The notes under the pieces: generated by a model
The model's input: only the letters and a program-made list of their open reading frames with translations
Told to the model about the DNA's origin: nothing
The model's database searches: none
Virus record (IMG/VR): IMGVR_UViG_3300027708_000057
Span: 1 to 64,000 of that record
Direction: 5' to 3' (one strand)
DNA: 64,000 nt
From: a virus
Made by a program: the position numbers and the translations under genes
Part shown: piece by piece, positions 802-23,173 of the stretch
How positions within the stretch are numbered: position 1 is the first letter of the stretch
Layout of the letters: the number at the start of each line of letters is the position of its first letter

Positions 802-1260
802 ATGAAAAAATCAAAGGAAGATATTCTGGCATCTCTTACTGCTAACACTCCTAAGGAAATGCTGCCTATTGAAGTAGTTCCTGAATATATTGGACCAAGC
901 CATGACGATATTATAAAGGATACTGAAGAAGACTATGCATTTGCAAGAGCACATATGAAGAAACTCATAGATGTTTCTGATGAAGCAATTGCTACATTAG
1001 GAGCATTATGTGCCGATTGTGAACAACCAAAATCCTACGAATTTCTCTCAACATTGATAAAAAACTCTGCAGATATTAATAACAATCTCATGATTCTCCA
1101 AAGAGATCGTAAGAAGCTGATTCAAGATAAACCCAAAGAAACTCAAGCCGGTATTAATGTAGGGGGATCAATTACTACAAATAACAATTCTATCTTTGTA
1201 GGATCTACTATTGAATTGCAGAAGTTTTTGAAAGATCAACAAAAAACTATAGATATATGA
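802..1260 (+). CDS. gp16: Terminase small subunit (T4 gp16-like)
   Basis: Lies directly upstream of the large terminase; DYAFAR and NNNSIFVGSTIELQKFLK motifs typical of T4-like small terminases. Confidence 0.8.
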   Translation: MKKSKEDILASLTANTPKEMLPIEVVPEYIGPSHDDIIKDTEEDYAFARAHMKKLIDVSDEAIATLGALCADCEQPKSYEFLSTLIKNSADINNNLMILQRDRKKLIQDKPKETQAGINVGGSITTNNNSIFVGSTIELQKFLKDQQKTIDI

Positions 1261-1670
1261 TTTTTGATAATCAAAAAACTAAGGAAAATGGATATTTGGG
1301 AAATCTCAATGTAAAGAAAAATGGAGTAAATATAGACTTTACATCAGAACAGATTACTGAATATGTTAAATGTATGCAGGATCCTGCATATTTTATCTGT
1401 AACTATGTTAAAATTATAAGTTTGGATGATGGATTAGTTAATTTTAAATTGCGAGGATATCAGGAAAATCTGATTAGCCATATTACTGATAACAAATTTA
1501 TTGCAGTACTAGCGCCGAGACAATCGTCCAAGTGCCAACATATAAATACAATCGTAACCATTCGTAATAAGATGACAGGTTTAATTGAAAAAATAACAGT
1601 TGGAGATTTATATGAAAGAACTAAAATAAATTTGTCACAAGATATTGACAGAGACCAAACCAAACACTAG
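1257..1670 (+). CDS. gp17: Terminase large subunit fragment 1 (aa 1-92) fused to a 45-aa split-intein N-fragment
   Basis: YLGNLNVK, DPAYFICNYVKI, YQE and Walker A start APRQSSK, followed by intein-like CQHINTIVTIRNKMTGLIEKITVGDLY. Confidence 0.92.
   Translation: MIFDNQKTKENGYLGNLNVKKNGVNIDFTSEQITEYVKCMQDPAYFICNYVKIISLDDGLVNFKLRGYQENLISHITDNKFIAVLAPRQSSKCQHINTIVTIRNKMTGLIEKITVGDLYERTKINLSQDIDRDQTKH
1533..1667 (+). mobile_element. Split intein A, N-fragment (45 aa)
   Basis: Starts with Cys directly after the Walker A Lys; block A pattern C....T.V.....G.....I.DL. Confidence 0.85.
1541..1548 (+). promoter_or_regulatory. T4-type late promoter inside the IntN coding sequence, upstream of the endonuclease gene
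   Basis: Exact TATAAATA about 100 bp before the ATG at 1645. Confidence 0.55.
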
Positions 1671-2685
1671 AAAATTACATCCATTATATACTGAATATAT
1701 TTCTCATATAATAGAAACTCATGATAAAGTTTTCGAAAACTTTAAAACTAAAAGTCCTGTAATAAAAATTAGCAGGCTTTTTAATGCGTTAACTAAAGAT
1801 CATGAAGAAGGGGAAGTTGAATGTCAAATATGTAAACTATATAAAAGAAACAGCATAATTCAACACGTTAATATTTCTCATGGATTGTCTGGAAAAGAAT
1901 ATAAGAAACTATATAATGCAGAATTAGTATCTGATGGAATCAAAGAATATTCATCAGAAAAAATCAAAGGTGATAAAAATCCCGGCTGGCAGCATGGTGG
2001 GAGATTGTCTCCATTTTCAGAAAAATTCGTGAAGTATCAAGGAAAACCTAAGGAAGAAATCTCAGAATCTCTTAGAGAATTATATGAAAAAGTCGGATCA
2101 TCGAATAAAGAAAATGGAAACAATAATAAGACTATAATATATTGGACTTCGAGGGGATATTCAGAAGGAGATGCTAAAAAAGAACTTTCAAAACGAGGAA
2201 TTACATTTTCATTGGAAACTTGTATTGAAAAACATGGAGAAGAGATTGGTAGAAAACTATGGTTGGAACGTCAAGAAAAATGGCAAAAAACAATGAAATC
2301 AAAACCAATAGAAGAAATTGAACGAATCAATCGGGATAAATCTACTGGGCGAATGTGTCAGTTATTTAATAGTAATCCAGAAGTGAAACTTATTCCCAGT
2401 TTGTTATATTATGTTCGATTTTTTAATGATGATAATAGTGTTGAGTTTTGGAAAGTTGGAATTACATCACATGATCAAGTATCTAAAAGATTTCCTTCTA
2501 TTAAACGATATGGTTTACAATATGAAATAATATCTACAAATATTAATATGAATTTTTATGATGCATTTAAAGCTGAACAAAATTTTCTCCATAAATATAA
2601 AGAACATAGAATTAATATTGATTATAATGGATTTACAACAACAGAATCATTTTCAATCAATGTCTTGAATAATCAAATATTATGA
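1645..2685 (+). CDS. Free-standing homing endonuclease (GIY-YIG-like C-terminus, Zn finger, NUMOD-like motif) between the halves of split intein A
   Basis: CQIC...H...H Zn finger, GDKNPGW, LLYYVRF...FWKVGIT...RF; overlaps both terminase fragments. Confidence 0.75.
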   Translation: MTETKPNTRKLHPLYTEYISHIIETHDKVFENFKTKSPVIKISRLFNALTKDHEEGEVECQICKLYKRNSIIQHVNISHGLSGKEYKKLYNAELVSDGIKEYSSEKIKGDKNPGWQHGGRLSPFSEKFVKYQGKPKEEISESLRELYEKVGSSNKENGNNNKTIIYWTSRGYSEGDAKKELSKRGITFSLETCIEKHGEEIGRKLWLERQEKWQKTMKSKPIEEIERINRDKSTGRMCQLFNSNPEVKLIPSLLYYVRFFNDDNSVEFWKVGITSHDQVSKRFPSIKRYGLQYEIISTNINMNFYDAFKAEQNFLHKYKEHRINIDYNGFTTTESFSINVLNNQIL

Positions 2686-3050
2686 GTCCTTTATTATCTG
2701 AAACAGTTAAAAGAAAGTTCATTGATACTCTTCCTATAGATGATTATGAAATTCTGACAGATACTGGATGGGAAGACCTTACTCATATTAATGTAACTAT
2801 TCCATATGATGAATATGAGATTACATTAAAGGATAATAAATCTATGATATGCGCGGATACTCACATTTTCTTTAATGAAAATACTGAAGAAATCTTCGCA
2901 AAGGATTGTGATAATATCAAAATTCAAACAGTGGACGGGCCAATTCAAGTTGAGTCTGTTATCAAAAATGGTAAACAATCCAATATGTTTGATCTATCTG
3001 TAAATTCCGACAATAACAGATATTATACAAATGATATTTTGAGCCATAAT
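2682..3050 (+). mobile_element. Split intein A, C-fragment (123 aa)
   Basis: Block B CADTH, block F MFDLSV, C-terminal HN followed by Ser. Confidence 0.9.
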
Positions 3051-4076
3051 AGCACTACTGCTATTGCCTGGTTGTTTTGGTATATCATGTTTAATGCTGA
3101 TAAACAGGTTGGAATTCTTGCAAATAAAGGGGCTATATCTCGTGAAATGCTTGCTAGATTTACCTTAATGTTAGAAAATCTTCCATTCTGGTTACAACCC
3201 GGATGTAAGGTGCTTAATAAGGGTTCTATCAAATTTTCACATAATTCCGAAATTATTGCGGCTGCCACATCATCATCTAGTATTCGTGGAAGAAGTCTTA
3301 ACTGTGTTACAGGTGATACTAAAATATGTATATCAGCCAGAGATGGTATTTATTATATGACTACCATAGAGAATTTATATACAAATTTTTCTTATGGTAT
3401 GAAAGTAAAAACAAAGGAGGGGTTTAAGCCCTTTGATGGTGTATTAGATCAAGGGGTTTCAGAAAAAATATTATCTATATTTCTTAATAATGGGGAAACA
3501 TTAAATTGTACATATGATCATAAACTTTTATTAAATGATGGAATTTCTTTTATACCAGCAAGATTCTTAGAAAATAATGACATCTTATATCCTGATATAC
3601 AAATAATCAATATATCTGAGCATAAACCAGAAAAAGTATATGATCTTATAAATGTAAAAGATACACATTCTTATTTTACAAATGGTATTATTAGTCACAA
3701 TTGTCTAATGCTCGATGAGTTTGCATTCGTAAATAATGCCGACGAATTTTACACAGGTGTTTATCCGGTTATTACATCTGGCACAGATGTAAAAGTAATT
3801 ATTACATCTACACCGAACGGAGTTGGTAATATGTTTTATAAAATTTGGGAAGGAGCCATTCAAGGAACCAATGATTTTAAACCATTTCGTATTAGGTGGC
3901 AAGAAATACCCGGTAGAGATGAGGTGTGGAAAAGACAAACTATTGCAAATACTTCTATTGTAAAATTTTCTCAGGAATTTGAATGCATTTCATTTTCTTC
4001 AGATATTACTATAAAAGATACTACTACTGGTATTATTTCTAATAAGAAAATAGGAGAACTTCATTCCATTTTGTGA
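2682..4076 (+). CDS. gp17: Terminase large subunit fragment 2: IntC(A) - extein - cis mini-intein - extein - IntN(B)
   Basis: ...ILSHN|STTAIAW, ILANKG, RGRSLN|C...ISHN|CLMLDEFAF (Walker B), ITSTPNG, FSQEFE|CISFSS. Confidence 0.93.
   Translation: MSPLLSETVKRKFIDTLPIDDYEILTDTGWEDLTHINVTIPYDEYEITLKDNKSMICADTHIFFNENTEEIFAKDCDNIKIQTVDGPIQVESVIKNGKQSNMFDLSVNSDNNRYYTNDILSHNSTTAIAWLFWYIMFNADKQVGILANKGAISREMLARFTLMLENLPFWLQPGCKVLNKGSIKFSHNSEIIAAATSSSSIRGRSLNCVTGDTKICISARDGIYYMTTIENLYTNFSYGMKVKTKEGFKPFDGVLDQGVSEKILSIFLNNGETLNCTYDHKLLLNDGISFIPARFLENNDILYPDIQIINISEHKPEKVYDLINVKDTHSYFTNGIISHNCLMLDEFAFVNNADEFYTGVYPVITSGTDVKVIITSTPNGVGNMFYKIWEGAIQGTNDFKPFRIRWQEIPGRDEVWKRQTIANTSIVKFSQEFECISFSSDITIKDTTTGIISNKKIGELHSIL
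3303..3701 (+). mobile_element. Contiguous mini-intein (133 aa) in terminase, just before Walker B
   Basis: CVTGDT...CTYDH...VYDLINV...ISHN followed by Cys. Confidence 0.93.
3984..4073 (+). mobile_element. Split intein B, N-fragment (30 aa)
   Basis: CISFSSDITIKDTTTGIISNKKIGELHSIL* after QEFE. Confidence 0.88.
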
Positions 4077-4399
4077 AACCTAACTTTAAATACGAAATTC
4101 TTACTACGAAAGGTTTCAAGAAGTTTGATGGGATTTCTAAACAATCTTCATCAAAAACATATACTATTATTGGAGAAACTTTAGAATCTATTGTTGCAAC
4201 TGAAAATCATAAATTTCAATGCTCCGATGATTCATGGGTGTCAGTTCTGGATTTGCTTACTACACATAGAAACTCTATTCTCAAAAATATCGGAGAAATT
4301 GTTGATATATCTCCAAATAATATTACAGAAGATGTATATGATTTGATTAATGTCGCTGATACTAAATCCTTCATTGCATCTGGTTTTATATCTCATAAT
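4073..4399 (+). mobile_element. Split intein B, C-fragment (109 aa)
   Basis: Blocks B, F and G present; ends HN followed by Cys. Confidence 0.9.
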
Positions 4400-5203
4400 T
4401 GTGAATTCATCGGATCTGCTCAAACTTTAATTTCTTCTAATATTCTTCTAGGTCTTACTTCCCGAGAACCTATTAAGACTCAATATGAAATTAAATATTA
4501 TATTGAACCGTTGGAAGGGCATGTTTATATAATGACAGTTGATGTTAGTAAAGGCCGAGGGCAAGATTATTCAACATTCTCCATTTTTGATATTACAGAA
4601 CAACCCTTTAAACAAGTTTGCACATTTCGAGATAATATGATTTCTCCGTTAATGTTTCCCGAATATATTATCCGAGGAGCTAAATTATATAATAATGCTA
4701 TTGTTATTATTGAAAATAATGATGTAGGACAAGTTGTTTGTAATTCTGTATATTATGATTATGAATATGATAATCTATTTGTACAATCTTCTCTTAAGGC
4801 TTCAGGTGTTGGAGTTACTATGACTAAGAGGGTCAAACGCGTAGGTTGTTCTAACTTGAAAGATTTGCTTGAACAAGGAAAGTTAGAAGTATATGATGCA
4901 AATACAATAATTGAATTGACTTCATTTGAACCTAAGGGTGAAAGTTATGCAGCATCAGGGTCTAATCATGATGATATGGTCATGAATTTAGTATTATTTG
5001 CATGGTTTGTTTCAACAGAAGCTTTTGGAAATATATCATCCATTGATTTAAAATCATTATTGTATGCCGATAAGATTAAGGAAATGGAAGAGAATGATTT
5101 GCCATTCGCCATAATGACTTCTGAATATAACGAATATTCCAGCCCATCGATGGAGTATTATGAGAAAGCTAAGGCCGAACTTGAAGAGTGGGGTCACTTA
5201 TAA
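4073..5203 (+). CDS. gp17: Terminase large subunit fragment 3: IntC(B) (109 aa) plus nuclease domain
   Basis: ATENH, VYDLINV, ISHN|CEFIGS; RNase H-like motifs TVDVSKGRGQDYS, IENND, HDDMVM; GTG start overlaps the TGA of fragment 2. Confidence 0.93.
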   Translation: MKPNFKYEILTTKGFKKFDGISKQSSSKTYTIIGETLESIVATENHKFQCSDDSWVSVLDLLTTHRNSILKNIGEIVDISPNNITEDVYDLINVADTKSFIASGFISHNCEFIGSAQTLISSNILLGLTSREPIKTQYEIKYYIEPLEGHVYIMTVDVSKGRGQDYSTFSIFDITEQPFKQVCTFRDNMISPLMFPEYIIRGAKLYNNAIVIIENNDVGQVVCNSVYYDYEYDNLFVQSSLKASGVGVTMTKRVKRVGCSNLKDLLEQGKLEVYDANTIIELTSFEPKGESYAASGSNHDDMVMNLVLFAWFVSTEAFGNISSIDLKSLLYADKIKEMEENDLPFAIMTSEYNEYSSPSMEYYEKAKAELEEWGHL

Positions 5204-19581: not shown

Positions 19582-20568
19582 TTATACCTTCTTTTTTCCT
19601 TTGGGAAACACTTTATCATATACTTCCGTGATAGATATAATATTTCCACGTCCACCTCTAGGGCTTATGTTTAATCTAGTATTTGGAATACCATAATCAG
19701 ATCTATCTCCACCTTTATGAGTAGCCATTAATACAGGTTGATATTCATATATGGCTAAATCACCATTATAATATATGTGATTCGCCTTAATTTCATATAT
19801 GCCATTAGAATTAATAAGAACAATATCTCCTTGTATGATTAAAGATACATTATTCCTTCCCATACTTTTGCCATAATCCTTACCATACATTGCCAATAAT
19901 TGTAATTTTTTATTAACTATATTTTCATATACAGTTGTATTAGGAGGCAATCCATTAGGATATAATAGCTTTATGTTTTCAATAAAAGTTTTAGTTTCTA
20001 ATTGTTTTGCTATTATTTCCTCTTCTCTTAAAGAAATACCACCCCATTGATGAAAATCATTAGCTTTAGAACCTGACTTATGCGATATCCATACTATTTC
20101 TTTTCCATCAATATCAATTAAATGAAAATCAGATTTTGCATTGGGAGGATTTGATCTTGGAGTTGATTTTACGGCAGATACTTCATATATCTTACCTTTA
20201 ATTTTAATTTTAATACTCGAATATCCTTCAGTCTCTTTTGCTTTATCAATTTGTTTATTCAATGATTCTATTACTTTATCTTCATTAGAAACTCTATAAT
20301 ATATATCTTTTCCTATGAACTCAGTATTCAATAGTATTGATTTAAACATATAAGATGACTTACAATCCGTGGATAATAGAATTAAATCATCTATAGATTT
20401 ACTTTGATTTTCTATTGCCTCTATAATAGTAGGAAGAATTTCAAATACAACTTTTTTTCTATCACTTAATTCAAACGGTTCTTTAGCTTTATATTTTCTA
20501 AGAAATACAGTCGAAGTCCATGTATATTGTTTTCTCGTTATGTCCGAAAAAGTTTCTAAAATAGCCAT
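19582..20568 (-). CDS. Hypothetical protein, possible PD-(D/E)xK-like nuclease
   Basis: AKSDFHL...VWISHK resembles a restriction-endonuclease-like active site. Confidence 0.45.
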   Translation of the reverse strand: MAILETFSDITRKQYTWTSTVFLRKYKAKEPFELSDRKKVVFEILPTIIEAIENQSKSIDDLILLSTDCKSSYMFKSILLNTEFIGKDIYYRVSNEDKVIESLNKQIDKAKETEGYSSIKIKIKGKIYEVSAVKSTPRSNPPNAKSDFHLIDIDGKEIVWISHKSGSKANDFHQWGGISLREEEIIAKQLETKTFIENIKLLYPNGLPPNTTVYENIVNKKLQLLAMYGKDYGKSMGRNNVSLIIQGDIVLINSNGIYEIKANHIYYNGDLAIYEYQPVLMATHKGGDRSDYGIPNTRLNISPRGGRGNIISITEVYDKVFPKGKKKV

Positions 20569-20569
20569 A

Positions 20570-21052
20570 TTATTTTAGATTGTAGATATTTCCTATATAT
20601 GCATCAAACTCTATATGATGCTTTCTAAAAGAAAGCGTTAACTTCTTTTCTAAATGTTCAGCTTCATATTCCCATGGATATTCAGATGTATAAACTATAT
20701 CTTTTTCAAATCTTTCTTTTTTCCATTTAGTATGTTTTGAAAAAAATACAAGTTCTCTTTTATCAAATTGTTTTACATGAACCATTTCATGAGCAAGAGT
20801 TCTAATAGTTTCATACGGAGACATATCAGCATTCAACTGAATTATATATTTAGAAGGATTGATTTTATTACTATAGTTATAACATTCACCATAAGCTTTT
20901 TCCTTCTTAACTAGATTATTCACAATCTTAACTATAATATCAATATTGTGTTTGTTTGGTAACAACTGATTCAAAAAATAAACAGATGCCCTAGATAAAC
21001 ACTTCTTGAGAAGTTTATCATTAGAGCATCCGTATATTTTGAGATTAATCAT
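20570..21052 (-). CDS. Zn metallopeptidase-like protein (HEXXH)
   Basis: TLAHEMVHVKQ...PWEYEA. Confidence 0.75.
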   Translation of the reverse strand: MINLKIYGCSNDKLLKKCLSRASVYFLNQLLPNKHNIDIIVKIVNNLVKKEKAYGECYNYSNKINPSKYIIQLNADMSPYETIRTLAHEMVHVKQFDKRELVFFSKHTKWKKERFEKDIVYTSEYPWEYEAEHLEKKLTLSFRKHHIEFDAYIGNIYNLK

Positions 21053-21054
21053 TA

Positions 21055-22128
21055 TTATGCATACGCCATGATTAGCCGAGTAAGATCATCATCTTTAATA
21101 GAAACTCCGGCAGCGACAGCACCACCGGCAATAGCAAGACCTCGGGATAATTTGCGAAGATTGGCGGATTGTTTAGAGTTGCCTTTACGAAGTAATTCAA
21201 CTACATGTTTACGTTGAGCTAATGTTAATTGTAGACCATCTTCTAACTCCATATCTCCTACAATCTTATCCATGAAGTCATAAATCTCTTCTACTGTTGG
21301 ATCAATGTCAATGATAAATGCTCTTGTACGAAGAGCTTTATCTGGATCTAATTTATCAAGAGACATATTAGAAATAAATATAATCTTTCCAGTAAATTCA
21401 AAATATCTAGGAATCATCCCAGCATCAAGAATTTCATCATCTGTCATTGTATCTGGATCAACGACGTTCTTACCCATCTTATTCCATACGAGCTTGCGTT
21501 TTTTCTTAGTATCTGTTGCAGCTTTTAGAATATTACGTCCTTCTGTATCCCCAAAGACATCATCTGAATCATCGAATAGAATAATTTTATCCTTATATCT
21601 GAATAACAGTGAATATAGACCAGCAGCCGAAGCAGAACCTGTATTTTTGAAATACCCCTTACCATCCTTAAGCCCCATGGAATGTAGGACTTTTTCAGTT
21701 GTGTGAGTTTTACCGGTATTGTGATGACAAATACCATTTGCTGTAAAATATAGATGATCGGCTGAATCAATTTCAACATCATAATAATCCGAAACAGAAT
21801 CTGAAATTATTATATTAATAATTTTCACATAAGATCCATCTTGCGTCATCACTTCATCCCCAATTACTAAATCTCTTACTTGTAAACTTCCTTTACTTGT
21901 AGTTAATAGATGTACATCCGAACATTTAATAATTCGATCATCTTCAAATTTAACCAATGTATCTTTACCAGGTTTAATAACAAATGATACAATCTTTGAA
22001 CTTCCAGAAGGAGTATCGATTTTTATATTTAAGGAAGAAATATCATAAAATTTGAAATGTTCTAGATAATCGCCATACAATTTTTCTGTAAGGTCTTTAA
22101 TATCTTGTATTGTGTTAAGTTTTTTCAT
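21055..22128 (-). CDS. Split AAA ATPase, C-terminal half, preceded by a 137-aa intein C-fragment
   Basis: CSDVH, YYDVEID, GICHHN|TGKTHT; Walker B IILFDDSD, IIFISN, ALRTR. Confidence 0.88.
   Translation of the reverse strand: MKKLNTIQDIKDLTEKLYGDYLEHFKFYDISSLNIKIDTPSGSSKIVSFVIKPGKDTLVKFEDDRIIKCSDVHLLTTSKGSLQVRDLVIGDEVMTQDGSYVKIINIIISDSVSDYYDVEIDSADHLYFTANGICHHNTGKTHTTEKVLHSMGLKDGKGYFKNTGSASAAGLYSLLFRYKDKIILFDDSDDVFGDTEGRNILKAATDTKKKRKLVWNKMGKNVVDPDTMTDDEILDAGMIPRYFEFTGKIIFISNMSLDKLDPDKALRTRAFIIDIDPTVEEIYDFMDKIVGDMELEDGLQLTLAQRKHVVELLRKGNSKQSANLRKLSRGLAIAGGAVAAGVSIKDDDLTRLIMAYA
21718..22128 (-). mobile_element. Split intein C, C-fragment (137 aa)
   Basis: Blocks B, F and G; ends HN followed by Thr. 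Confidence 0.88.
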
Positions 22129-22157
22129 TGATTAAATTTGATTTGGTCTCTATGATG

Positions 22158-22289
22158 TTATTTATATATTCCTAACAATCCTTCATTACATCTTCTAATA
22201 AAGAATTTTAGTACTTCAACCCATCCGAATATAACAATAAAAGAAACAAATAATATAAAGATATTTAATACTTTATTCCATAGTAGCAT
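22158..22289 (-). CDS. Possible 43-aa hydrophobic peptide between the split-intein halves
   Basis: MLLWNKVLNIFILFVSFIVIFGWVEVLKFFIRRCNEGLLGIYK*; fills most of the gap. Confidence 0.3.
   Translation of the reverse strand: MLLWNKVLNIFILFVSFIVIFGWVEVLKFFIRRCNEGLLGIYK
22159..22166 (-). promoter_or_regulatory. Late promoter for the IntC-ATPase half
   Basis: TATAAATA on the minus strand 30 bp upstream of the ATG at 22128. Confidence 0.65.
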
Positions 22290-23157
22290 TAATTTCCGTA
22301 TCTGCTGATAAACAACCCCCAACACCAGATACAAATATTGCGTTAGACGCCCCTGATATTGTTAATTTAAGGAGATGTTCTAAGTCTGCCAACTGTTGTT
22401 CAAACGTAAGTTTATCAATCTTAGTTTCAAGAGTATCAATATCTTGAATATCTTCATAAGTTTCTTTTGAAGAACCTTTAGTAATCTTACCTGTAACGAT
22501 ACCAATAGAATCTGTAATATCATCAAGATCCTTCATAATATTTTGAAGTTGTTTTGGTGTGCCTGTCCATTCATAATCAACACCATTCTTAACGATTTCC
22601 TTTGAATATGTTGTAAGAAGATAATCAAAAATCTTAATTCCAGGTGATGCATATTTAGCTCTTACATCCCCTTTGCTTGCGCCTGGACCAGAAATCATAT
22701 CGAGTATACCAGAAAGAATATCTTTTGGTGTATCTCCTCTAGCTTCATTCAGAGGAATTCCATCAGGCATTGTATTAATTTCTCCAGTATAACCGTTAGC
22801 TGATATAATATCTGCAATAACAGGAAGTGTCTTTATAAGCGATACTTCTTTATCAAACTCTATATGATATGGTCTGGCACTTTCTCCATTCCAGAAATCA
22901 ACAGATTCTAAACCACTTAATCCGATAGAATTGGATAACGACCAATTGAATCGGATAGATTTACTATCTTTAGTACTATAAAACCGAATACCTCGACCCT
23001 TACCAGACTCGTTTTGATATACTTCGACCCCGGCAGATTTAAAGAATAATAATCCGGTTTTCTTTTGAAGATATTTTGTAATGATCAGACCAGCCTTCTC
23101 AGCTGAACTTGAAGTCATTGCTTCGACAATACATGGTTTGAAACTTAAATTGCTCAT
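22273..23157 (-). CDS. Split AAA ATPase, N-terminal half, ending in a 13-aa intein N-fragment
   Basis: Ends NAIFVSGVGG|CLSADTEINATME*; GVGG plus TGKT rebuilds Walker A. Confidence 0.88.
   Translation of the reverse strand: MSNLSFKPCIVEAMTSSSAEKAGLIITKYLQKKTGLLFFKSAGVEVYQNESGKGRGIRFYSTKDSKSIRFNWSLSNSIGLSGLESVDFWNGESARPYHIEFDKEVSLIKTLPVIADIISANGYTGEINTMPDGIPLNEARGDTPKDILSGILDMISGPGASKGDVRAKYASPGIKIFDYLLTTYSKEIVKNGVDYEWTGTPKQLQNIMKDLDDITDSIGIVTGKITKGSSKETYEDIQDIDTLETKIDKLTFEQQLADLEHLLKLTISGASNAIFVSGVGGCLSADTEINATME
22276..22314 (-). mobile_element. Split intein C, N-fragment (13 aa)
   Basis: CLSADTEI matches intein block A (CL..DT.I). Confidence 0.85.
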
Positions 23158-23165
23158 ATATGTTA

Positions 23166-23173
23166 TATTTATA
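23166..23173 (-). promoter_or_regulatory. T4-type late promoter
   Basis: TATAAATA on the minus strand 9 bp before the ATG at 23157. Confidence 0.7.

Follow-up and report, generated by a model that had tools for sequence, protein, structure and literature searches.

A probable natural split intein with a 13-residue N-fragment in the Walker A loop of a phage ATPase

The question raised by the locus described here is how a phage makes a P-loop ATPase whose coding sequence is divided inside the Walker A loop. The window analysed is a stretch of 64,000 nucleotides from a metagenome-assembled virus record (IMG/VR IMGVR_UViG_3300027708_000057, positions 1 to 64,000), and on its minus strand the ATPase is encoded by two separate open reading frames, ORF1 (22273-23157, 294 aa) and ORF2 (21055-22128, 357 aa). 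The answer that we consider highly probable is that a class-1 intein, intact, evolutionarily maintained and split both naturally and atypically, occupies the Walker A loop of an NrdC.10-like ATPase in a freshwater T4-like phage.

The split locus and its host protein

ORF1 comprises a 281-aa N-extein (22315-23157) closing on FVSGVGG and, directly after it, the 13 codons of the IntN, CLSADTEINATME (22276-22314), which amount to block A with the catalytic Cys1 and are followed by a TAA stop (22273-22275) that is unchanged in every run compared. ORF2, with a TAA two codons 5' of its ATG, opens with the 137 codons of the IntC (21718-22128), in which block B (CSDVH), block F (YYDVE) and block G (HHN) can be recognised; this segment ends in GICHHN and is followed by TGKTHT, the Thr+1 of TGKT being the first residue of a 220-aa C-extein (21058-21717). 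The spacer between the two frames (22129-22272) is exactly 144 nt long, has 22% G+C, and lies in the same frame as both ORFs. Joining the exteins gives a protein of 501 aa with GVGG abutting TGKT, and the predicted junction peptide of the spliced ATPase ends in VSGVGGTGKTHTTEK. A sequence-only reading of this stretch had already taken the Walker A loop to be interrupted by a split intein with 13 IntN residues and Thr at +1, giving about 501 aa once joined, and the open reading frames and their translations bear out every detail it gave of the ORF1 end, the 144-bp gap and the 137-aa IntC running through HHN into TGKT.

The host protein is an NrdC.10-like P-loop ATPase, as indicated by a profile match of ORF2 residues 139-318 to phrog_1250 (E 5.5e-23), by the Walker A motif GVGG-TGKT once rejoined, and by the Walker B motif ILFDDSDD in the C-extein. 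A tblastn search matched 1228 phage records, including S16 gp55, annotated as ‘similar to NrdC.10’. The N-extein matched no Pfam or PHROG family and nothing in GenBank phage records, NrdC.10-like isolates included, and a Pfam search with the whole of ORF1 was likewise empty; the N-extein is 57-76% identical to the N-fragments of three relatives (P0122-P0124), aligns to the N-halves of uninterrupted homologs, and carries a conserved (I/L)-x-E-A motif at its N-terminus. The uninterrupted ATPase homologs for which the sequence-only reading had suggested a search are common and measure 503-516 aa. The same reading had called the host unusual, which holds in that the ATPase is new as an intein host, but not for the position, since P-loops are a usual kind of insertion site and a cis intein sits in a helicase P-loop of the same phage.

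Conservation and predicted fold of the intein

The element belongs among the class-1 inteins, having the catalytic Cys1, the His of block B, the Asp of block F, the HHN motif, Thr+1 and a predicted HINT fold. Cys1 (Cys282 of ORF1) directly follows GVGG and is invariant in six N-fragments and in all cis relatives; an alignment of the six N-fragments shows G280, G281, C282, L283, S284, D286 and T287 to be invariant (GG-C-L-S-x-D-T). Among 22 C-fragments the invariant positions are H73, D117, H135, H136, N137, T138, G139, K140 and T141, the last four being the TGKT of the C-extein, and in block B (S70-D-V-H73), which aligns to the CSDNH of CatC, both C69 and S70 are at least 90% conserved. As the catalytic residues stay constant while IntC identity falls to 32-35% among the same 22 sequences, the split intein is, judged from these alignments, under selection. 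The residue at the Thr+1 position is V or I in many intein-free homologs. Threonine is a less common +1 nucleophile, and often a slower one.

In sequence searches the IntC found its best PDB match in the consensus atypical TerL intein CatC (6DSL_B, E 2.9e-5), with gp41-1 next, and Pfam Hint and intein models reached ORF2 below their cut-offs only (Hint_2 at 17.8 bits versus 28.4). The two fragments together amount to 150 aa, against 144-150 aa over eight split pairs, and no part is missing when the split pairs are aligned with the cis mini-inteins, 148-151 aa long, that full-length homologs carry at this P-loop site (P0111, P0144, P0160, P0164 and P0170). An AlphaFold model of one of these cis relatives, P0111 (mean pLDDT 80.1), was matched by Foldseek with probability 1.00 to 6VGV, 6QAZ and many other inteins, which is the HINT horseshoe fold, the top match being the VidaL intein 6VGV (E 5.3e-10, TM by target 0.78). 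The model has strands 53-58 and 61-66 around a turn at Q59-P60, and the end of the 13-aa IntN maps onto this turn, that of the beta2/beta3 hairpin, so that the predicted split position is the S1 site, directly after beta-strand 2.

A complex prediction, with the IntN docked on the IntC, scored 0.73 (best control 0.22), a mark attained by 58 out of 80 solved complexes and by 2 out of 110 mismatched pairs. Because split-intein complexes have already been solved, this pass may reflect memory of such structures. The docking runs agreed in at least 75% of contacts with a partner pLDDT of at least 54, and residues 279-294 of the first chain contacted IntC residues 1-11, 33-38, 67-74, 113-117, 128-131 and 135-138, an IntN of 13 residues being a small interface.

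On this evidence, the two ATPase gene products would almost certainly rejoin by protein trans-splicing. Gene 1 would supply the 281-aa N-extein with its 13-aa IntN, and gene 2 the 137-aa IntC with its 220-aa C-extein; the IntN strand would pair with IntC residues 1-6, closing the beta2/beta3 hairpin and completing the HINT fold. A thioester formed by Cys1 would then be attacked by Thr+1, and cyclisation of Asn137 would free the 501-aa ATPase with its GVGGTGKT loop intact.

The spacer, the putative endonuclease relic and alternative readings

The spacer is more than filler and holds the relic of a deleted, putative homing-endonuclease gene. In two relatives, L002 and L085, homologous ORFs of 417 and 433 aa lie between IntN and IntC (39% identical, E 4e-90), and a tblastn comparison of the spacer with the 417-aa ORF of L002 gave 60% identity over 30 aa plus FGWVEVL (E 3.75e-5), the two DNAs agreeing at 80 of 110 positions. 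The relic (22118-22232) covers about the last 39 codons, carries one internal stop and one frameshift, and its last codons overlap the start of the IntC, as they do in L002. Pfam and PHROGs returned no usable family for the intervening ORFs of L002 and L085; a paralog gave a sub-threshold match to MUG113 (E 0.0023), and Atlas look-alikes pointed to T5orf172 (score 0.95), so that these are putatively T5orf172/MUG113-like free-standing endonuclease genes. Because the spacer carries a broken 3' remnant of such a gene, the locus is best described as a probable ‘fractured gene’ minus its putative endonuclease. A free-standing homing endonuclease gene of the T5orf172/MUG113 type may have entered the hairpin-turn codons of a contiguous mini-intein, thus generating the fractured gene, and a later deletion in the window phage would have spared some 115 nt from the 3' end of the endonuclease gene within the spacer. 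A 58-aa hydrophobic ORF (22158-22334) that had been considered as a small gene was dropped, its tail being the relic read in one frame.

With relatives included, one protein family appears to display at one site the whole series of intein-free, cis mini-intein, endonuclease-fractured, and fractured forms from which the endonuclease has been lost. At least ten lineages have a 13-aa IntN, and among them IntC identity goes down to about 41%; besides the window phage, for which it was confirmed on DNA, these include P0122, P0123, P0124/L002, P0130, P0132, P0168, P0190, L087 and L057, and 13 aa is the commonest IntN length in the ATPase intein family. Spacers of the split relatives range from 13 nt to 1.3 kb. 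Four further members (P0134, P0163, P0187 and P0237), known from protein entries alone, may have an IntN of 11-12 aa; viral contigs scanned for P0134, P0163 and P0237 yielded none closely related to them, and L099 is an intein-free homolog. A short DNA pattern for HHNTGKT was present in 76 stretches of viral contigs, with true relatives on only two contigs.

A degraded gene relic in the spacer means that the locus has undergone deletions, and in T4-like phages genes fractured without splicing are known, such as split gp43 and NrdA (PMC2677866). It could thus be argued that the halves are the decaying, non-functional remains of a fractured gene, or that they associate, by way of the intein pieces, into a two-subunit ATPase without a covalent link. 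We regard this as unlikely: both ORFs are intact, and the catalytic residues, from Cys1 through the His of block B and the Asp of block F to HHN and Thr+1, have remained invariant or nearly so in spite of IntC divergence. Moreover, a mere dimerisation tag would have no need for Asn137 or Thr+1, and without ligation the Walker A loop would stay cut between its glycines and GKT.

A second alternative, that the intein is made in cis, either by removal of the 144-nt spacer from the RNA or by translational bypassing or readthrough, draws on the shared reading frame of ORF1 and ORF2, and T4 gene 60 provides a precedent for bypassing. We consider it very improbable. Beyond the TAA the spacer holds seven more in-frame stops, with all three kinds represented, and an Rfam search of it matched no family; IntN and IntC already add up to the full length of a cis intein; and the spacers of relatives are as different as 13 nt out of frame (L087), 93 nt (L057) and 1.3 kb with a whole gene (L002 and L085). 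In addition, an RNA-library contig (21990-22226), colinear with the DNA, spans the IntC start with 98 nt of spacer still joined to it, though it could possibly represent DNA carried over into the RNA library; this RNA run and run X4 cover the region only in part.

That a false stop and start were introduced by assembly or sequencing into a contiguous intein gene, as might be suspected of a metagenome-assembled record estimated to be about 41% complete, is effectively already refuted, since contigs from two runs (possibly the source samples) at word depths of 156 and 52 are identical across the spacer, low-depth contigs of another sample also match it without differences, the exact ORF1 protein is present on 11 contigs, and the stop falls after the same 13 aa in several diverged lineages.

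A promoter belonging to ORF2 itself had also been suggested. The T4 late-promoter consensus TATAAATA is present at 22159-22166, starting 38 nt upstream of the IntC ATG with 30 nt between motif and ATG, and it is kept at the same position in one close relative (L002); it is, however, a consensus match only, and the RNA contig extends upstream of it. A second copy at 23166-23173, again a consensus match only, lies very near the ORF1 start codon, with 8 nt between motif and ATG. Within the window the motif shows no enrichment (18 copies against 13.25 expected, with at least 18 in 16 of 100 shuffles), and therefore no promoter is claimed; no clear Shine-Dalgarno sequence precedes either ATG.

Comparison with known short and split inteins

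A short IntN can be made by peptide synthesis with any chemical label and then spliced onto a recombinant protein, and the current tools for such labelling are VidaL with 16 aa, the slow PolB16 with 15 aa and M86, an engineered one, with 11 aa. An IntN of 13 aa that is natural and selected would extend this toolbox, comes with many diverged orthologs and cis forms, and would also test how small a part of block A is enough for assembly. Natural IntN fragments have been given as 15-37 aa long, with PolB16 at 15 aa ‘the shortest characterized’, VidaL at 16 and AceL-TerL at 25 (PMC10189870, PMC13014065), in agreement with the lengths that the sequence-only reading had given (shortest about 15-16 aa; AceL-TerL 25 aa). 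At 13 residues the IntN falls below the 15 residues of the shortest one yet characterised from a natural split intein. Its suggested place among the shortest is thus upheld by a length below the published range, but it is not unique, being the commonest in a family whose members may go down to 11-12. In 2020 an intein laboratory predicted that ultra-short natural variants ‘might be very rare’ (PMC7891396); in the ATPase intein family such variants exist and are more than singletons. On balance we lean slightly towards regarding this family as holding the shortest natural IntN known, with 11-12-aa relatives that equal the engineered limit of 11 aa, and as offering dozens of diverged orthologs and cis forms for consensus design.

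The nearest solved fold is that of VidaL, from a Lake Vida metagenome (6VGV), which is likewise natural and cysteine-dependent and is split at S1 after beta-strand 2, with an IntN of 16 aa (PMC13014065). In the published construct, as given in the supplement of PMC10264447, the VidaL C-extein begins with SGK, and for this reason VidaL too may sit in a P-loop. It differs in an IntN that begins with CLPKEAVVQIRLTKG and is three residues longer, and in having Ser at +1 in that construct, where Thr is found here (PMC10264447). In structure VidaL matches the cis relative P0111 better than any other entry does, but at 18% identity in the structural alignment, and a phmmer search with the IntC did not recover 6VGV at E values up to 10; fold and split site are similar in the two, which are nevertheless different inteins. 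PolB16 OarG shares the natural S1 split and has the published shortest characterised IntN, of 15 aa (PMC10189870), yet it is cysteine-less (Ser1), resides in a PolB DNA polymerase, comes from a sheep gut metagenome, and has an IntN two residues longer.

AceL-TerL, GOS-TerL and the consensus ‘Cat’ resemble the present intein in being phage-borne and in combining a short IntN with a long IntC, and CatC, the closest solved sequence, shares with it the CSDxH of block B and the YD...LYYT of block F; they differ in their S2 split site, which follows helix alpha1 and leaves an IntN of 25-30 aa, and in residing in the terminase large subunit. Ssp DnaB M86, artificially split with an IntN of 11 aa, demonstrates that trans-splicing can proceed with an IntN of roughly block A, but it is a product of laboratory engineering and evolution and is not natural. 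In genomic arrangement the parallel is with the fractured genes of Dassa et al. 2009 (PMC2677866), in which the two genes with the split-intein halves lie on either side of a free-standing homing endonuclease gene; the arrangement in L002 and L085 is exactly the same, with the putative endonuclease gene in between. The published fractured-gene inteins gp41-1, NrdJ-1 and AceL NrdHF, however, are split canonically, with an IntN of about 100 aa rather than 13, and their endonucleases are classical GIY-YIG or Vsr-like enzymes, in contrast to the T5orf172/MUG113-like candidate seen here and reduced to a relic in the window.

The gene pair and its phage

ORF1 (22273-23157, minus strand; 294 aa) ends in ...FVSGVGG, the 13-residue IntN CLSADTEINATME and TAA, and ORF2 (21055-22128, minus strand; 357 aa) opens with a 137-residue IntC that closes with GICHHN and is followed by TGKTHT. 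The ORF2 start is the first possible ATG, as a TAA lies two codons upstream. The spacer is exactly 144 nt long with 22% G+C, and is in frame with both ORFs. The exteins total 501 aa (281 + 220) and would meet at GVGG/TGKT (slashes mark insertion points). Coordinates and ORF reading thus agree with the layout of the sequence-only reading, namely GVGG-IntN-stop, a 144-bp gap, and a 137-aa IntC ending HHN-TGKT, as well as with its joined product of about 501 aa containing GVGGTGKT. The observation is confirmed as described, and the view that the ATPase gene pair encodes a naturally split intein is supported by the sequence comparisons below.

The IMG/VR virus record is 74 kb long, with completeness estimated at about 41%; the whole stretch is present in runs labelled freshwater metagenome, and part of it in a lake-water RNA run. 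The ATPase gene is accompanied by those for a gp41-type DnaB helicase and UvsX, and the gp41 homolog shares about 55% identity with its marine cyanomyovirus counterparts, which indicates a T4-like phage. The profile matched by the C-extein is phrog_1250 (E 5.5e-23). The C-extein also finds matches in 1228 phage records; among them is Salmonella phage S16 gp55, annotated 'similar to NrdC.10'. The 281-aa N-extein matched no Pfam family, PHROG family or GenBank phage. In the closest relative (database homologs P0001 and P0122) identity is 93% over the C-fragment but no more than 76% over the N-fragment, so the N-terminal domain of the ATPase evolves much faster than the core. The first 13 codons of ORF1 (23119-23157, minus strand) read MSNLSFKPCIVE/A, a hydrophobic-x-E-A motif kept in split and unsplit ATPase homologs (e.g. 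...YLSEA, ...YITEA) and similar to the T4 capsid-targeting sequence cut by gp21; if the ATPase goes into the phage head, splicing would need to come before packaging. Directly 3' of the ATPase (19582-21052, minus strand) lie genes for a 160-aa Peptidase_M78/IrrE-like metalloprotease (HEMVH motif, phrog_10499) and a 328-aa phrog_13937 protein with no assigned function.

Completeness, fold and conservation of the intein

Pfam Hint models matched below their cut-off only. The best PDB sequence match of IntC is CatC, the consensus atypical terminase intein (6DSL_B, E 2.9e-5), followed by gp41-1, and the CatC alignment spans CSDxH (block B) and YD...LYYT (block F). The search for uninterrupted ATPase homologs, proposed as a check, found them in abundance (503-516 aa; e.g. 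P0008, GRGG/IGKTHT); their +1 position is V or I in many and T in a few. Contiguous mini-inteins of 148-151 aa occupy exactly the same site in full-length P0144, P0160, P0164 and P0170 and in N-truncated P0111. Eight split pairs, each with its IntN and IntC joined by script, gave products of 144-150 aa that aligned end to end with these cis inteins, with a few residues at most absent at the split. On this alignment the split intein is complete, no part being absent, and its Cys1 makes it, by sequence, a class 1 intein.

Across the 22 C-fragments compared, IntC is as little as 32-35% identical to the window while the C-extein keeps 46-59% identity, but H73 (block B), D117 (block F), H135, H136, N137 and Thr+1 are invariant, which bears out the earlier assignment of blocks B, F and G and of Thr as the +1 residue in TGKT after HHN. 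In six N-fragments G-G-C-L-S-x-D-T is invariant.

The AlphaFold model of P0111 (mean pLDDT 80.1) places strands at 53-58 and 61-66, with a turn at Q59-P60 between them and a helix at 67-78. Since Cys1 is residue 47, a 13-residue IntN would end at Q59, in the hairpin turn, and the second strand corresponds to IntC residues 1-6. Such split positions are named S1, as in VidaL and PolB16 (PMC13014065). The top Foldseek match of the model is the VidaL intein (6VGV; E 5.3e-10, TM by target 0.78, 18% identity), and the second is gp41-1. Complex prediction with ORF1 residues 255-294 and ORF2 residues 1-160 gave a docking score of 0.73 (best control 0.22), a mark that 58 of the 80 solved complexes and 2 of the 110 mismatched pairs attained; contact agreement among runs was at least 75% and the partner pLDDT at least 54. 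The predicted interface joins N-fragment 279-294 to IntC 1-11, 33-38, 67-74 (block B), 113-117 (block F), 128-131 and 135-138 (HHN-T). Because split-intein complexes have already been solved, the result signifies likeness to these rather than demonstrating binding.

Origin of the split and rival explanations

In L002, a viral contig relative with 81% identical IntC, the 1.28 kb from the stop of the 13-aa IntN to the IntC start are taken up by a 417-aa ORF. A 433-aa homolog (39% identity, E 4e-90) holds the same position in L085 (IntC about 35% identical, IntN 15 aa), and a third (E 2e-22), at 1645-2685 of the window, separates two terminase large subunit pieces joined by an atypically split intein. 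The intervening ORF is probably a free-standing homing endonuclease, as the C-terminal domain of the 1645-2685 ORF has a sub-threshold match to MUG113 (Pfam; E 0.0023) and a domain of the L002 ORF adjoins T5orf172/MUG113 clusters in the Atlas (score 0.95, 187 shared features), some of them auto-named GIY-YIG nuclease family proteins. A tblastn search of the window with the L002 ORF matched its last 30 residues at 22207-22118 (60% identity, one internal stop) and, in a second frame, FGWVEVL against FGWTEVI at 22232-22206 (E 3.75e-5). Some 115 of the 144 spacer bases, continuing into the first IntC codons, are thus a broken remnant of the 3' end of the putative endonuclease gene. With the intact gene in relatives, this fits the 'fractured gene' of Dassa et al. 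2009 (PMC2677866), the endonuclease having afterwards been lost. The T4 late-promoter consensus motif TATAAATA begins 38 nt before the IntC ATG, and at the same distance in L002, within the endonuclease tail; it was not found upstream of IntC in L085, L087 or L057.

It is unlikely that the halves are joined at the RNA or translation level, so that the intein is made in cis. Beyond the ORF1 TAA the spacer carries seven more stops, of all three kinds; it matches no Rfam family, and among relatives the spacer varies from 13 nt (in a different frame) through 93 nt to 1.3 kb. A contig from the RNA library (21990-22226) stays colinear with the DNA through the start of IntC and 98 nt into the spacer, although this is weak evidence, as carried-over DNA is possible. 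A dead or non-splicing gene pair fits poorly with the invariance of Asn137, Thr+1 and Cys1 despite deep divergence. An assembly artefact is excluded, as the Logan contigs from two runs, possibly the source samples, with word depths of 156 and 52, do not differ from the window, low-depth contigs of a further sample span the spacer without change, and 11 contigs on record carry the exact ORF1 protein.

The phage appears to have at least five inteins, counting three reported in the terminase. The terminase large subunit (1257-5203, plus strand) is in three pieces (1257-1670, 2682-4076, 4073-5203), the latter two with intein splicing domains beside Terminase_6N and Terminase_6C; the 1645-2685 ORF (346 aa, T5orf172/MUG113-like), homologous to the endonuclease-like ORFs at the ATPase split site of relatives, lies between pieces 1 and 2. 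Outside the window, a 632-aa helicase-like ORF (G000:C1 ~71329-73227, minus strand; L006:418-2316) holds a contiguous P-loop mini-intein (...SPTA/CLDGNTEII...GILHHN/SGKS), with 27% identity to the IntC of the ATPase (E 1.5e-6).

IntN length and known split inteins

The 13-aa IntN is recurrent and not peculiar to this phage. It is found in relatives with N-extein 57-76% or IntC 41-47% identical to the window: P0122 (CLSADTKINATLE), P0123 (CLSADTEIVATIE), P0124/L002 (CLSADTAIVATQD), L087 (CLSADTELDIRTE) and L057/P0168 (CLAGKTEINIQIG), and likewise P0130, P0132 and P0190. An exhaustive HMMER search over cluster representatives, with lengths read from protein records, returned candidates of 11 aa (P0134) and 12 aa (P0163, P0187, P0237) besides others of 14, 15, 16, 18, 20, 21, 26 or 33 aa. 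These four relatives possibly have an IntN of 11-12 aa; P0163 occurs on 4 contigs, the longest 31.7 kb, which argues against contig-end truncation. The N-fragments of P0177, P0157 and P0208 end ...GGxGK/C... with IntN tails of 14-23 aa, placing the intein three residues later in Walker A, after GK, so that this P-loop would have two insertion sites. The L057 contig (IMGVR_UViG_3300035661_000023) has four in-frame TAG codons over both ATPase halves where relatives have ordinary residues, and TAA or TGA as its IntN and spacer stops; it may read TAG as sense.

The published range of natural atypical IntN is 15-37 aa (PMC10189870, PMC13014065). PolB16, at 15 aa, has been called 'the shortest characterized' (PMC10189870), and VidaL and AceL-TerL have 16 and 25 aa (PMC10189870, PMC13014065), in line with the figures of the sequence-only reading (15-16 aa as the shortest, 25 aa for AceL-TerL). 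The only published IntN of 11 aa is that of engineered M86 (PMC13014065). A 2020 paper expected natural variants so short, but considered that they 'might be very rare' (PMC7891396). The claim of one of the shortest natural IntN fragments therefore holds, at 13 aa against a published minimum of 15 aa, and a predicted split intein of this kind is of real practical interest for protein semisynthesis. The host protein is as unusual as was proposed: a full-text literature search found no description of an intein in an NrdC.10-like ATPase, and NrdC.10 was mentioned only in a 2006 genome comparison. Precedents are known for the mechanism, for class 1 (Cys1), for a split at S1 and for an origin as a fractured gene; new are the IntN length of 13 aa, verified on DNA, and possibly of 11-12 aa in relatives, the host protein, the putative T5orf172-like endonuclease partner, and a complete evolutionary series inside one protein family.
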